Shown here: piece after piece, positions 26,191 to 59,145 of the stretch
How the letters are laid out: each line of letters begins with the position of its first letter
Numbering within the stretch: the stretch's first letter is position 1
Notes under the pieces: generated by a model
Told to the model about the DNA's origin: nothing
The model's input: only the letters and a program-made list of their open reading frames with translations
The model's database searches: none
Made by a program: the position numbers and the translations under genes
Assembly (NCBI RefSeq): GCF_003334765.1
Contig: NZ_QOWT01000002.1
Strand: one strand, 5' to 3'
DNA from: Escherichia coli
GTDB lineage: Bacteria > Pseudomonadota > Gammaproteobacteria > Enterobacterales > Enterobacteriaceae
DNA length: 64,000 bases

Positions 26191-26970
26191 CTACACCGTA
26201 ATTAATTTCACCCGTGTCTTCTGCAATGCCAGTTTATCCACCTCTGACACAGCATCATCTGTAATAATAATGTCAATTTTTTCGATTGGCAGTACCTGAT
26301 TAAAACCGCGACGGTTAAATTTCGATGAATCGAGAACGGCAATCACTTTATTAGCGGCGGTGACCATTGCACCGCTAATCGAATAACCTTCATTAAAGGT
26401 CGTAATACCATTAACCGCATCAATACCATCAGCACCGACAAACATTAAATCGGCATTAATATCCTGCAATGAACGCTCGGCAATGGAACCATGCATCGAG
26501 CGCGTTTTATGGCGGACCGTGCCACCACAGACGACCAGAGTAATGTCTTTATTTTCGGAAAGGGCAAACGCTGCCGGGAGACTGTTGGTAATCACCGTGA
26601 TATTTTTAGCGGTCATTAATCCTTCGGCGATAAGCATTGTGGTACTTCCGCTGTCGAGAATAACGGTCATCCCTTCATGGATCATTTTGACTGCCGCCTG
26701 CGCTATTCTGTTTTTTGGCGCGCTGGCGAGCTGAAATCGCTCTTTAAACCCGACTTCCTGGGTCTCGGTTTCACTATTACCGGACATTATTTTCGCCGCA
26801 CCGCCATGAAAGCGCGTAACCACGCCTTTTTGTTCGAGAAAGCGCAAATCGGCACGGATTGTCGCTTCCGAGGCAGCAAATACTCCCGCCAGATCCTGAA
26901 CAAGCACGGTTCCCTGTTCATTCACTAATTGGATGATCTTATTCCTTCGCTCGAATGAATTCATCGTCAT
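26191..26970 (-). CDS. gatR: DeoR-family repressor of the galactitol operon GatR, uninterrupted
   Basis: 259-aa continuous ORF with an N-terminal HTH and a DeoR C-terminal sugar-phosphate binding domain. Confidence 0.88.
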   Translation of the reverse strand: MTMNSFERRNKIIQLVNEQGTVLVQDLAGVFAASEATIRADLRFLEQKGVVTRFHGGAAKIMSGNSETETQEVGFKERFQLASAPKNRIAQAAVKMIHEGMTVILDSGSTTMLIAEGLMTAKNITVITNSLPAAFALSENKDITLVVCGGTVRHKTRSMHGSIAERSLQDINADLMFVGADGIDAVNGITTFNEGYSISGAMVTAANKVIAVLDSSKFNRRGFNQVLPIEKIDIIITDDAVSEVDKLALQKTRVKLITV

Positions 26971-40536: not shown

Positions 40537-40680
40537 AGTTTGCTCCTGCCATAACGTGAAGAAGCAATGACCTGGTGGTCCGTGACTTCCCTACGCTGGC
40601 ATTATCCAGATCAGGTGATACGGGTATTTCTCAGCCTTCACGCAGAAGGGCACCCCGAGTCGTTTGGTTGCGATGATAAA
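40537..40680 (-). promoter_or_regulatory. TPP riboswitch (thi-box) in the thiM leader
   Basis: Reverse complement contains CTCGGGGTGCCCTTCTGCGTGAAGGCTGAGAAATACCCGTATCACCTGATCTGGATAATGCCAGCGTAGGGAAGTC, the thiM THI-element aptamer as I recall it. Confidence 0.85.
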
Positions 40681-40758: not shown

Positions 40759-41031
40759 TTATTTGATATATGAATCCAGCACCTTCAGAACGACATCCAG
40801 ATCTTCTTCACGTTTTAGCTCATCCCCCTGGTGAACGATGTGTTCCGTCAGATGACCTTTAATCACTTCCCGCATCAGACCGTTTACCGCGCCACGGATA
40901 GCAGCAATCTGTTGTAAAACTGCAGCGCATTCGTGCGGCTCGTCGAGCATTTTCTTGAGCGCCACGACCTGGCCCTGAATCTTACTGGCACGCGCTTTCA
41001 GTTTCTGTTTATCACGGATTGTATGAGACAT
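40759..41031 (-). CDS. rcnR: Ni/Co-responsive repressor RcnR
   Basis: 90-aa [32 protein letters not shown]. Confidence 0.92.
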
Positions 41032-41079
41032 GGCAACACCTGGTTAACAAGAATATGAAAAATCATAGCACTATTAATC

Positions 41080-41114
41080 TACTGGGGGGTAGTATCAGGT
41101 ACTGGGGGGGAGTA
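41080..41114. promoter_or_regulatory. Tandem RcnR operators (TACT-G6/7-N-AGTA) in the rcnR-rcnA divergent promoter
   Basis: tactggggggtagta at 41080-41094 and tactgggggggagta at 41100-41114. Confidence 0.75.
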
Positions 41115-41151
41115 GAATCAGATTGCCGAATTAATACTAAGAATTATTATC

Positions 41152-41976
41152 ATGACCGAATTTACAACTCTTCTTCAGCAAGGAAACGCCTGGTTCTTCA
41201 TCCCCAGCGCCATCTTACTTGGTGCGCTTCATGGCCTGGAACCAGGGCACTCAAAAACGATGATGGCGGCGTTTATCATCGCCATCAAAGGCACCATTAA
41301 ACAAGCGGTGATGCTCGGACTGGCAGCAACTATTTCGCATACCGCAGTGGTCTGGTTAATTGCCTTTGGCGGGATGGTGATCAGCAAGCTCTTTACTGCT
41401 CAATCAGCAGAACCGTGGCTCCAGCTGATTTCCGCAGTGATCATTATTAGCACCGCGTTCTGGATGTTCTGGCGTACCTGGCGCGGCGAACGCAACTGGC
41501 TGGAGAATATGCACGGGCATGATTATGAGCATCATCATCACGATCACGAACATCACCACGACCATGGACATCATCACCATCACGAACATGGCGAGTATCA
41601 GGATGCCCATGCACGAGCCCATGCCAATGACATTAAACGACGCTTTGATGGTAGAGAGGTCACCAACTGGCAAATTTTGTTATTTGGCTTAACCGGTGGC
41701 CTTATCCCCTGCCCGGCAGCAATTACCGTGCTGTTGATATGCATTCAGTTGAAAGCCCTGACACTGGGCGCAACACTGGTCGTCAGTTTCAGCATTGGCC
41801 TGGCGTTAACGCTTGTCACCGTAGGCGTTGGCGCAGCAATCAGCGTTCAGCAGGTCGCAAAACGCTGGAGCGGATTTAACACTCTCGCTAAACGCGCCCC
41901 CTATTTTTCCAGTCTGTTGATTGGCTTAGTCGGTGTGTATATGGGCGTACATGGCTTCATGGGCATAATGCGATAA
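41152..41976 (+). CDS. rcnA: Ni/Co efflux protein RcnA
   Basis: 274-aa membrane protein with a His-rich loop (HGHDYEHHHHDHEHHHDHGHHHHHEH). Confidence 0.92.
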   Translation: MTEFTTLLQQGNAWFFIPSAILLGALHGLEPGHSKTMMAAFIIAIKGTIKQAVMLGLAATISHTAVVWLIAFGGMVISKLFTAQSAEPWLQLISAVIIISTAFWMFWRTWRGERNWLENMHGHDYEHHHHDHEHHHDHGHHHHHEHGEYQDAHARAHANDIKRRFDGREVTNWQILLFGLTGGLIPCPAAITVLLICIQLKALTLGATLVVSFSIGLALTLVTVGVGAAISVQQVAKRWSGFNTLAKRAPYFSSLLIGLVGVYMGVHGFMGIMR

Positions 41977-42194: not shown

Positions 42195-42533
42195 ATGACC
42201 ATTAAAAATAAGATGTTGCTGGGTGCGCTTTTGCTGGTTACCAGTGCCGCCTGGGCCGCACCAGCCACCGCGGGTTCGACCAATACCTCGGGAATTTCTA
42301 AGTATGAGTTAAGTAGTTTCATTGCTGACTTTAAGCATTTCAAACCAGGGGACACCGTACCAGAAATGTACCGTACCGATGAGTACAACATTAAGCAGTG
42401 GCAGTTGCGTAACCTGCCCGCGCCTGATGCCGGGACGCACTGGACCTATATGGGTGGCGCGTACGTGTTGATCAGCGACACCGACGGTAAAATCATTAAA
42501 GCCTACGACGGTGAGATTTTTTATCATCGCTAA
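42195..42533 (+). CDS. rcnB: Periplasmic Ni/Co homeostasis protein RcnB (YohN)
   Basis: 112 aa from MTIKNKMLLGALLLVTSAAWA (signal peptide); the ORF-track start at 42015 is rejected. Confidence 0.85.
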   Translation: MTIKNKMLLGALLLVTSAAWAAPATAGSTNTSGISKYELSSFIADFKHFKPGDTVPEMYRTDEYNIKQWQLRNLPAPDAGTHWTYMGGAYVLISDTDGKIIKAYDGEIFYHR

Positions 42534-55512: not shown

Positions 55513-58500
55513 ATGGACAAGGAATTACCGTGGCTGGCGGATAACGCCCAACTGGAACTGAAATATAAAAAAGGCAAAACGCCGCTCAGTCATCGTCGCT
55601 GGCCGGGCGAACCAGTGTCCGTTATCACTGGAAGTCTCATCCAGACATTGGGTGATGAATTGCTACAAAAAGCTGAGAAGAAAAAAAACATTGTCTGGCG
55701 TTATGAGAATTTTTCACTGGAGTGGCAGTCCGCCATCACGCAGGCCATCAACTTGATCGGCGAACACAAACCCTCAATCCCGGCCCGGACAATGGCGGCG
55801 CTAGCCTGTATCGCGCAAAATGACAGCCAACAGTTGCTCGACGAAATCGTCCAACAAGAGGGGCTGGAATATGCGACTGAGGTGGTGATTGCACGCCAGT
55901 TTATTGCGCGGTGTTATGAGAGTGATCCTCTGGTAGTGACATTGCAGTATCAGGACGAGGATTATGGCTATGGTTATCGCTCAGAAACCTATAACGAATT
56001 CGATCTCCGACTGCGTAAGCATCTCTCTCTGGCAGAGGAAAGCTGCTGGCAGCGTTGCGCCGACAAACTCATTGCCGCACTACCAGGAATAACCAAAGTT
56101 CGCCGCCCTTTTATTGCGCTGATCCTCCCGGAAAAACCAGAAATAGCCAATGAGTTGGTAGGCCTTGAATGCCCGCGAACTCATTTTCATTCTAAGGAGT
56201 GGTTAAAAGTTGTTGCTAATGACCCCACAGCGGTGAGAAAACTCGAACACTACTGGAGCCAGGATATATTTAGCGATCGAGAAGCCAGCTACATGTCGCA
56301 TGAAAACCACTTCGGCTACGCGGCCTGCGCCGCCCTTTTGCGCGAACAAGGACTGGCAGCCATTCCGCGCCTCGCGATGTATGCCCATAAAGAAGATTGC
56401 GGCAGTCTGCTGGTACAAATTAACCATCCGCAAGTCATCCGCACCTTGCTACTGGTGGCTGATAAAAACAAACCCAGCCTGCAACGTGTAGCTAAATACC
56501 ATAAAAACTTCCCCCATGCGACGCTCGCCGCACTGGCAGAACTGCTGGCGTTAACAGAACCACCAGCCCGCCCTGGTTATCCAATCATCGAAGACAAAAA
56601 GCTGCCTGCACAGCAAAAAGCACGCGATGAATACTGGCGTACGCTGTTACAAACGCTGATGGCATCGCAGCCACAACTGGCAGCAGAAGTGATGCCGTGG
56701 TTAAGTACTCAACCCCAGTCAGTGCTGAAGAGTTATTTATCGGCACCGCCCAAACCGGTTATTGATGGCACCGATAACAGCAATCTGCCAGAAATCCTCG
56801 TTTCACCACCGTGGCGTAGTAAGAAAAAAATGACAGCTCCACGTCTTGATTTGGCACCGCTCGAATTAACTCCGCAAGTTTACTGGCAACCAGGCGAACA
56901 AGAGAGGCTTGCCGCCACTGAGCCTGCCCGTTATTTCAGCACGGAATCTCTTGCGCAACGCATGGAACAAAAAAGTGGACGAGTTGTATTACAGGAACTG
57001 GGTTTTGGGGATGATGTATGGCTGTTTCTGAATTATATACTCCCCGGAAAACTGGATGCTGCACGCAATTCACTCTTTGTTCAGTGGCATTACTACCAGG
57101 GGCGGGTTGAAGAGATCCTGAATGGCTGGAACTCCCCGGAAGCACAATTAGCAGAACAGGCGCTCCGCAGCGGTCACATAGAAGCGTTAATTAACATATG
57201 GGAAAATGACAACTACTCACATTATCGTCCGGAAAAGAGTGTCTGGAACCTGTATTTATTGGCACAGTTGCCGCGTGAGATGGCTTTGACCTTCTGGCTG
57301 CGTATCAATGAGAAAAAGCATCTGTTCGCGGGTGAGGACTATTTTCTCAGTATCCTCGGATTGGATGCGCTACCAGGTCTGCTGTTGGCTTTTTCACATC
57401 GTCCAAAAGAAACATTTCCGTTAATTTTAAATTTTGGCGCAACAGAACTGGCGCTGCCTGTTGCCCACGTCTGGCGACGTTTCGCGGCGCAGCGTGATCT
57501 GGCTCGCCAGTGGATTTTACAATGGCCGGAACATACGGCTAGTGCACTTATCCCTCTTGTCTTTACCAAACCCAGCGATAATAGCGAAGCCGCATTACTT
57601 GCCCTGCGTTTACTGTACGAACAGGGACATGGCGAATTGCTACAAACCGTGGCAAACCGCTGGCAGCGTACAGATGTATGGTCTGCCCTGGAGCAGTTGC
57701 TTAAACAGGATCCAATGGACATTTACCCGGCACGCATTCCAAAAGCCCCTGATTTCTGGCATCCGGCAATGTGGTCCAGGCCTCGACTTATCACTAATAA
57801 TCAGCCTGTTACCGGTGACGCTCTGGAAATTATCGGCGAAATGCTGCGCTTTACCCAGGGGGGACGTTTTTATAGCGGGCTGGAACAACTGAAAACGTTC
57901 TGCCAGCCACAAACGCTGGCAGCTTTTGCCTGGGATCTCTTCACTGCGTGGCAACAAGCTGGTGCCCCCGCAAAAGACAACTGGGCATTTCTGGCGTTAA
58001 GTCTCTTTGGTGACGAAAGCACGGCACGGGATCTGACGACACAGATCCTCGCCTGGCCACAAGAAGGCAAATCTGCCCGTGCTGTCAGCGGCCTGAACAT
58101 CCTTACCCTGATGAATAATGATATGGCGCTGATACAGCTGCATCATATATCGCAACGGGCTAAATCCCGCCCCTTACGTGATAACGCGGCGGAATTTCTT
58201 CAGGTGGTCGCAGAAAATCGCGGGCTAAGCCAGGAAGAGCTAGCGGACAGATTAGTCCCAACCCTGGGCCTTGATGATCCGCAGGCGTTGAGTTTTGATT
58301 TTGGTCCCCGGCAGTTTACCGTTCGCTTCGATGAAAACCTCAACCCGGTTATCTTTGATCAGCAAAACGTTCGCCAGAAAAGCGTTCCCCGTTTGCGCGC
58401 CGATGACGATCAACTGAAAGCGCCCGAGGCACTGACCCGACTAAAAGGGCTAAAAAAAGATGCTACTCAGGTGAGCAAAAACCTGCTCCCGCGTCTTGAA

Positions 58501-59145
58501 GCTGCCCTACGTACCACCCGACGCTGGTCGCTGGCAGATTTTCATTCTCTGTTTGTTAATCATCCCTTTACCCGTCTGGTTACCCAGCGATTAATATGGG
58601 GGGGTTATCCGGCAAATGAACCGCGTCGTTTACTCAACGCCTTTCGTGTGGCCGCAGAGGGGGAGTTCTGCAATGCGCAAGATGAGCCAATTGACCTGCC
58701 TGCGGACGCTCTGATTGGCATTGCCCACCCGTTAGAAATGGCAGTAGAAATGCGCAGTGAATTTGCACAGCTTTTTGCCGATTACGAAATTATGCCGCCT
58801 TTTCGCCAGTTGTCGCGCCGCACGGTGCTGCTCACACCTGACGAGTCAACCAGTAACAGCCTGACTCGCTGGGAAGGTAAATCCGCTACCGTTGGGCAAC
58901 TTATGGGAATGCGATACAAAGGCTGGGAGTCAGGCTATGAGGACACATTTGTCTATGACCTGGGCGAGTACCGGCTGGTCCTTAAGTTTTCACCCGGTTT
59001 TAACCACTACAATGTTGATAGCAAAGCGTTAATGAGCTGCCGTTCTCTTCGAGTGTACCGTGACAATAAATCCGTCACTTTTGCCGAACTTGATGTGTTT
59101 GATTTGAGTGAGGCGTTAAGCGCACCTGACGTCATTTTCCATTAA
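55513..59145 (+). CDS. yehI: DUF4132-family protein YehI (MolR paralog without the WGR N-terminus)
   Basis: 1210 aa; shared blocks with MolR such as GPRQFTV(S/R)FDE and RRWSL..F..F. Confidence 0.88.
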   Translation: MDKELPWLADNAQLELKYKKGKTPLSHRRWPGEPVSVITGSLIQTLGDELLQKAEKKKNIVWRYENFSLEWQSAITQAINLIGEHKPSIPARTMAALACIAQNDSQQLLDEIVQQEGLEYATEVVIARQFIARCYESDPLVVTLQYQDEDYGYGYRSETYNEFDLRLRKHLSLAEESCWQRCADKLIAALPGITKVRRPFIALILPEKPEIANELVGLECPRTHFHSKEWLKVVANDPTAVRKLEHYWSQDIFSDREASYMSHENHFGYAACAALLREQGLAAIPRLAMYAHKEDCGSLLVQINHPQVIRTLLLVADKNKPSLQRVAKYHKNFPHATLAALAELLALTEPPARPGYPIIEDKKLPAQQKARDEYWRTLLQTLMASQPQLAAEVMPWLSTQPQSVLKSYLSAPPKPVIDGTDNSNLPEILVSPPWRSKKKMTAPRLDLAPLELTPQVYWQPGEQERLAATEPARYFSTESLAQRMEQKSGRVVLQELGFGDDVWLFLNYILPGKLDAARNSLFVQWHYYQGRVEEILNGWNSPEAQLAEQALRSGHIEALINIWENDNYSHYRPEKSVWNLYLLAQLPREMALTFWLRINEKKHLFAGEDYFLSILGLDALPGLLLAFSHRPKETFPLILNFGATELALPVAHVWRRFAAQRDLARQWILQWPEHTASALIPLVFTKPSDNSEAALLALRLLYEQGHGELLQTVANRWQRTDVWSALEQLLKQDPMDIYPARIPKAPDFWHPAMWSRPRLITNNQPVTGDALEIIGEMLRFTQGGRFYSGLEQLKTFCQPQTLAAFAWDLFTAWQQAGAPAKDNWAFLALSLFGDESTARDLTTQILAWPQEGKSARAVSGLNILTLMNNDMALIQLHHISQRAKSRPLRDNAAEFLQVVAENRGLSQEELADRLVPTLGLDDPQALSFDFGPRQFTVRFDENLNPVIFDQQNVRQKSVPRLRADDDQLKAPEALTRLKGLKKDATQVSKNLLPRLEAALRTTRRWSLADFHSLFVNHPFTRLVTQRLIWGGYPANEPRRLLNAFRVAAEGEFCNAQDEPIDLPADALIGIAHPLEMAVEMRSEFAQLFADYEIMPPFRQLSRRTVLLTPDESTSNSLTRWEGKSATVGQLMGMRYKGWESGYEDTFVYDLGEYRLVLKFSPGFNHYNVDSKALMSCRSLRVYRDNKSVTFAELDVFDLSEALSAPDVIFH

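Follow-up and report, generated by a model that had tools for sequence, protein, structure and literature searches.

The DNA between the divergent genes rcnR and rcnA in the window (the whole 64-kb stretch of E. coli DNA analysed here) contains two short sites built around a run of guanines, six in one and seven in the other. The motif recognised by RcnR is described in the literature as TACT-G6-N-AGTA, occurring in two copies in the rcnR-rcnA intergenic region (PMC7055735, PMC3902906, PMC7105576). The question raised by this locus is whether the seven-G run of the second site is a peculiarity of the strain, a miscalled homopolymer, or the normal state of the operator.

Two operator sites between rcnR and rcnA

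The products of both flanking genes score well above the curated cut-offs of their family models. The open reading frame at 40759-41031 on the minus strand encodes the Ni(II)/Co(II)-responsive repressor RcnR (90 aa), has the same coordinates as b2105 of MG1655, and scores 197 bits with the NCBIfam equivalog NF011613, for a cut-off of 138. The one at 41152-41976 on the plus strand, annotated as b2106 with coinciding coordinates in MG1655, encodes the repressed target RcnA, a Ni/Co efflux protein of 274 aa, and scores 557 bits with NF007454 (nickel/cobalt efflux transporter), for a cut-off of 195. It is followed at 42195-42533 (plus strand) by rcnB, which has the same coordinates as b2107 of MG1655 and encodes a periplasmic accessory protein said to be co-repressed with rcnA; the profile search gave no NCBIfam match for it. 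RefSeq labels identical DNA as rcnR and rcnA in thousands of E. coli genomes. The translated RcnR carries His3, Cys35, His60 and His64, as read from the reading frame, and in this translation the four residues match the H-C-H-H signature that, according to PMC11672702, sets RcnR apart from CsoR. On the other side of the repressor gene, a TPP riboswitch (40571-40667, minus strand) upstream of thiM-thiD adjoins the 3' end of rcnR; it is ordinary and annotated in RefSeq.

Both sites lie on the plus strand in the 120-bp gap that separates the start codon of rcnR (41031, minus strand) from that of rcnA (41152). Site 1, TACTGGGGGGTAGTA (41080-41094), reads TACT-G6-T-AGTA, and site 2, TACTGGGGGGGAGTA (41100-41114), reads TACT-G7-AGTA, i.e., six G followed by N=G. 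Each is an exact match to the published motif. Direct reading gives a spacer of 5 bp between them, TCAGG (41095-41099), and a start-to-start spacing of 20 bp; a repeat search reported the pair as a two-copy direct repeat of 15 nt with 93% identity. The tandem is bracketed by a 16-nt imperfect inverted repeat (41068-41083 and 41111-41126, 75% complementary), with its centre in the spacer near 41097. The bases flanking the sites, TC ahead of site 1 and GA behind site 2, are also conserved across species.

When the window was searched for TACTGGGGGGNAGTA with at most two mismatches, these two sites were the sole matches, and both were exact. At this threshold, dinucleotide-shuffled versions of the window had 0.16 matches on average, and a single shuffle out of 100 yielded two. 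Such a figure leaves some room for a coincidence, but the matches in the window are exact, are placed 20 bp apart in register in the very intergenic region where they are expected, and are conserved across species, so that the probability of a chance pair is vanishingly small. The first-pass annotation had described two G-tract sites, separated by 5 bp, in the divergent promoter of rcnR and rcnA, a description that direct reading and the pattern search bear out. It had also named them as the RcnR operator, and the doubly exact motif, the scores of RcnR and RcnA with their family models, and the literature (PMC7055735, PMC3902906, PMC7105576) all agree with this assignment. Judging from sequence, the locus is almost certainly the canonical tandem type-1 RcnR operator in its reference form. 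The operator between rcnR and rcnA, with its two well-studied sites, is already known.

The seven-G tract in E. coli and across species

Site 2 does contain seven consecutive G, at 41104-41110 by direct reading. The first-pass annotation had suggested that the seventh might be a strain variant or a miscalled homopolymer length, and had named the finding of the same tract in reference genomes as evidence to the contrary. We compared positions 41000-41180, which include both sites, the spacer and both start codons, with the genome of K-12 MG1655 (NC_000913.3), and found that 181 of 181 bases are identical; MG1655 therefore carries the identical G7. The surroundings are about 99.3% identical between the two over 37 kb. 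As the window does not come from a K-12 strain (see below), the identity of the operator reflects conservation and not mere sameness of strain. Furthermore, since a run of seven G is simply G6 followed by N=G, it does not depart from the TACT-G6-N-AGTA motif in the first place.

To place the tract in the diversity of the species, its length was counted in 5426 complete E. coli genomes using queries of 59 to 61 bases. The exact 60-mer of the window (41068-41127) is present in 4415 of them, while site 2 with otherwise exact flanks has G6 in 118 and G8 in 98. G7 with exact flanks thus makes up 95% of the three classes combined. The G6 and G8 genomes indicate that tract length can vary, which is the one point in favor of a strain-specific variant or an assembly error in the window. 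Against this stand the same G7 in MG1655, in thousands of other E. coli genomes, in a copy of the locus on IncHI2 plasmids and in 60 of 61 species, as well as the fit of G7 to the published motif without any mismatch. We thus consider it extremely improbable that the tract of the window is a variant or a miscall, and the suggestion is refuted. By these genome comparisons, G7 is the normal form of site 2: it is conserved, and it is the majority allele in E. coli.

The cross-species figure was obtained by searching a single genome of each species for exact matches to the tandem pattern, in which the N positions and the sequence of the 5-bp spacer were left free and the length of the spacer was fixed. 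The arrangement was found in 61 species representatives from Enterobacterales, Vibrio and Shewanella. A homolog of RcnR or RcnA was present in the examined flank of all 61 loci, and both were present in 51, with RcnR identities ranging from 67 to 100%. As these loci were picked by the motif itself, only three features give independent information, namely the bases at N, the sequence of the spacer and the flanks. The N of site 1 (41090 in the window) is T in 61 of 61 loci, and that of site 2 (41110) is G in 60 of 61, the lone exception being a Shewanella locus with T in both sites. The spacers comprise 25 different sequences, in which the first base is an invariant T and the other four vary. 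Because the scan imposes the length of the spacer, conservation of this length could be assessed in the IncHI2 plasmid alone, where it is also 5 bp. Both in this plasmid copy and among the 61 species, the sites are conserved at orthologous loci while the flanks diverge. The conservation of T in site 1 and G in site 2 across species argues that the G7 of site 2 is the ancestral, conserved state. In five of the loci (Kosakonia and relatives), a third G7 element, AACTGGGGGGGAGTT, lies 7 bp upstream of site 1, and the operator of this group may have three sites.

Tract-length alleles in other E. coli lineages

The G6 and G8 alleles of other strains could themselves be genuine or result from assembly errors. 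As a control for homopolymer miscalls, we used the coding G7 of yehI (58598-58604), whose exact 60-mer was found in 279 genomes only, with G6 in 5 and G8 in 0. The flanks of this tract are polymorphic, which makes it a weak control, and it was replaced by the comparison of independent assemblies of one lineage. G8 is found in the O121 strain RM8352, from creek sediment in California, and in the O121:H19 strain FWSEC0006, a clinical isolate from Alberta. Between the two, the 40-kb flanks show two substitutions, and ten indels that set them apart from the window are common to both. That two independent O121 assemblies have both G8 and near-identical flanks points to an inherited allele, not an assembly error. 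From these two genomes, the O121 G8 allele looks inherited. In both of them yehI is annotated as frameshifted, and several small indels relative to the window are shared at about 56684-57067; these yehI indels mark the lineage independently of G8 in the rcn operator.

G6 is common to O111 RM9322, O111:H8 7-58 72A, 2013C-3513 and E2863, all of which have one and the same rcnA protein allele. Both G6 and G8 are also found with other rcnA alleles, and these length classes probably arise in part from repeated slippage, occasional assembly errors or both. A different change is seen in strain 097H6 (NZ_CP187781.1), where a 5-bp deletion strips the AGTA arm from site 2, leaving TACTGGGGGGGAATAAG (equivalent to 41111-41119 in the window). 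This deletion could be a natural lesion of the operator or else an error in the assembly.

The G6 and G8 alleles of site 2 alter the spacing between TACT and AGTA. Since site 1 with G6-T and site 2 with G7 are each conserved in about 60 species, the two sites may be functionally non-equivalent. If they are, this might be because they differ in affinity or because site 2 abuts the -10 element of rcnA. A fuller reading, in which the N of the motif is not free, the two sites are perhaps functionally distinct, and the natural G6 and G8 alleles could retune the basal efflux of Ni and Co, is one that we hold only tentatively and regard as rather unlikely. The occurrence of G6 and G8 alleles of site 2 in other strains is a mildly new observation, and the window itself carries the canonical allele.

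For the window, the outcome is that a textbook metalloregulator operator was correctly recognised, that it has the reference form, and that the apparent oddity of its G7 is the conserved normal state. The by-products of the analysis are the conserved bases specific to each site at the N positions, the putative positions of the two promoters, and the genuine G6 and G8 alleles of some E. coli lineages. These could help users of Ni/Co biosensors based on the rcn operator, as well as studies of metal resistance in Shiga-toxin-producing E. coli.

Putative promoter geometry and repression

We then looked at the flanks of the operator, whose columns were judged in the 56 loci with full flanks. A few of the columns left unspecified by the search pattern are conserved, and these suggest sigma-70 -10 elements on both sides of the operator. 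On the side of rcnA, the hexamer TAGAAT (41113-41118, plus strand), which overlaps the last two bases of site 2, is a candidate -10: all 60 loci examined have TAnnnT at this fixed offset, and TAGAAT itself is present in 38 of them. The final T of the hexamer was free in the search pattern, yet it is invariant (60/60 loci). On the side of rcnR, a putative extended -10, TGcTATGAT (TGCTATGAT), lies beside site 1 on the minus strand (41062-41070). Here the pattern TGnTAnnnT, read from 41070 to 41062, was compared across 61 loci: TG is present in 43, A at the second hexamer position in 47 and the final T in 46, and several of the remaining loci fit after a shift of one base.

Should both -10 elements be genuine, the predicted transcription starts are about 41125 for rcnA and about 41055 for rcnR. 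In the rcnA promoter, site 2 would then span approximately positions -25 to -11, and the -35 regions of both promoters would lie under site 1. Such a geometry, with site 2 on the -10 of rcnA and site 1 over both -35 regions, fits an operator shared by the two genes. A poor -35 for rcnA also agrees with the native rcnA promoter, PrcnA, being weak, as stated in PMC7105576. We found no published transcription start sites for rcnA or rcnR in the literature searched.

A scan for consensus promoters did not report the candidate -10 elements of rcnA and rcnR and gave other, non-conserved hexamers instead. One of its hits, TTGCCG-16-TATTAT (41123-41150), was rejected because it would place the start at or beyond the ATG of rcnA and because its columns are not conserved. 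A hit on the minus strand (41047 to 41018) was set aside as its -10 falls within the coding sequence of rcnR. The inverted repeat had also led us to consider a mirror-image -10 for rcnR, TAGATT (41081 to 41076), which we discarded because its last T (41076) is not conserved.

The overlap between operator and promoters gives some ground to another reading of the 15-mers, namely that they owe their conservation chiefly to a role as promoter or DNA-shape elements, with protein recognition secondary: an apparently conserved -10 shares bases with site 2, and the -35 regions of the two putative promoters are covered by site 1. However, no sigma-70 element corresponds to the G-tracts or to the TACT arms, and the 15-mer is present in two copies. 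Moreover, each of the 61 loci found by the motif has a homolog of rcnR or rcnA beside it, and published footprinting and binding work, relayed in PMC7055735, PMC3902906 and PMC7105576, assigns the sites to RcnR. We judge this reading very improbable and retain that of an operator recognised by RcnR.

The binding mode and the metal response of this operator are described from published experiments on the identical K-12 sequence (relayed in PMC7055735, PMC3902906, PMC7105576). PMC3902906 describes the operator as two type-1 sites in tandem, each bound by RcnR with a 1:1 stoichiometry. The same source describes contacts of RcnR with the minor groove at the TACT/AGTA repeats, and an unbroken G-tract that is thought to give the DNA an A-form character and to be read by its shape. 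Relaying primary work, it further states that mutations of TACT/AGTA abolish repression and leave basal promoter activity unchanged. In PMC7105576, the RcnR tetramer is described as blocking the transcription of rcnA and rcnB, and as dissociating upon binding of Co(II) or Ni(II). PMC7055735 cites Blaha et al. 2011, whose title has both rcnA and rcnR repressed via a shared operator.

Applied to the window, these elements suggest the following mechanism. Metal-free RcnR, a tetramer of the CsoR/RcnR family, would occupy each TACT-G6-N-AGTA site with one tetramer, which would touch the inverted repeats TACT and AGTA and recognise the uninterrupted G-tract by its shape. With a tetramer on each site, the core of the back-to-back promoters would be covered, and rcnA(B) and rcnR would be repressed. 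Once Ni(II) or Co(II) is bound, the repressor would leave the operator, and the efflux pump would be made.

The locus among known systems

The window is E. coli DNA from a strain other than K-12, as it lacks IS3E in gatR (junction near 26666). It differs from MG1655 at other places as well: it is without the PR-X remnant (ogrK, yegZ) after cyaR and without approximately 0.8 kb around yegJ, and its left end has extra sequence. It contains three tandem copies of the SIB RNA of the Sib/Ibs type I toxin-antitoxin systems (10075-10223, 10410-10552 and 10738-10880), at a place for which the MG1655 annotation lists two, sibA and sibB. A match to the Rfam OrzO-P antitoxin RNA (101 bits) is found at 59643-59718 on the plus strand, in the intergenic region between yehK and yehL. 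None of the small open reading frames listed near it looks like a ZorO toxin by eye, and this copy may be an orphan or a remnant.

The closest relative of the operator is that of K-12, which is the same over at least 181 bp, has the same flanking genes and shows no difference in the operator. The rcnR-rcnA locus of IncHI2 plasmids (e.g., CP048303.1, from Salmonella Schwarzengrund) emerged when plasmids were searched by tblastn with RcnR as the query. The intergenic DNA of this locus reads tcTACTGGGGGGTAGTAtatttTACTGGGGGGGAGTAgaatc, in which both 15-mers are unchanged, with T at the N of site 1 and G at that of site 2. It shares with the window the divergent genes, the 5-bp length of the spacer and the GAAT that follows site 2. 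It differs in the sequence of the spacer (TATTT instead of TCAGG) and in its flanks, which have diverged; its RcnR is 92% identical, and its RcnA is longer (a gene of 1116 nt).

The type-2 operators of CsoR, such as that of Streptomyces lividans, and other sites of the CsoR/RcnR family have in common with the sites of the window the pseudopalindromes with G/C tracts, the AT-rich dyads of GTA type and a recognition based on shape, as described in PMC3902906. According to the same source, a type-2 operator contains a pair of short G/C tracts, its repeats lie about 11 bp apart and two tetramers bind per site, whereas sites like those of the window have one unbroken G-tract, 7 bp from TACT to AGTA and one tetramer per site. 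Finally, an rcnR-like/rcnA locus on the megaplasmid of Ralstonia solanacearum also has divergent genes and a TACT-N7-AGTA site with a G6 tract. It has a single site, TACTAGGGGGGAGTA, which reads TACT-A-G6-AGTA, so that the base other than G precedes the tract instead of following it, and its repressor is 62% identical to RcnR.
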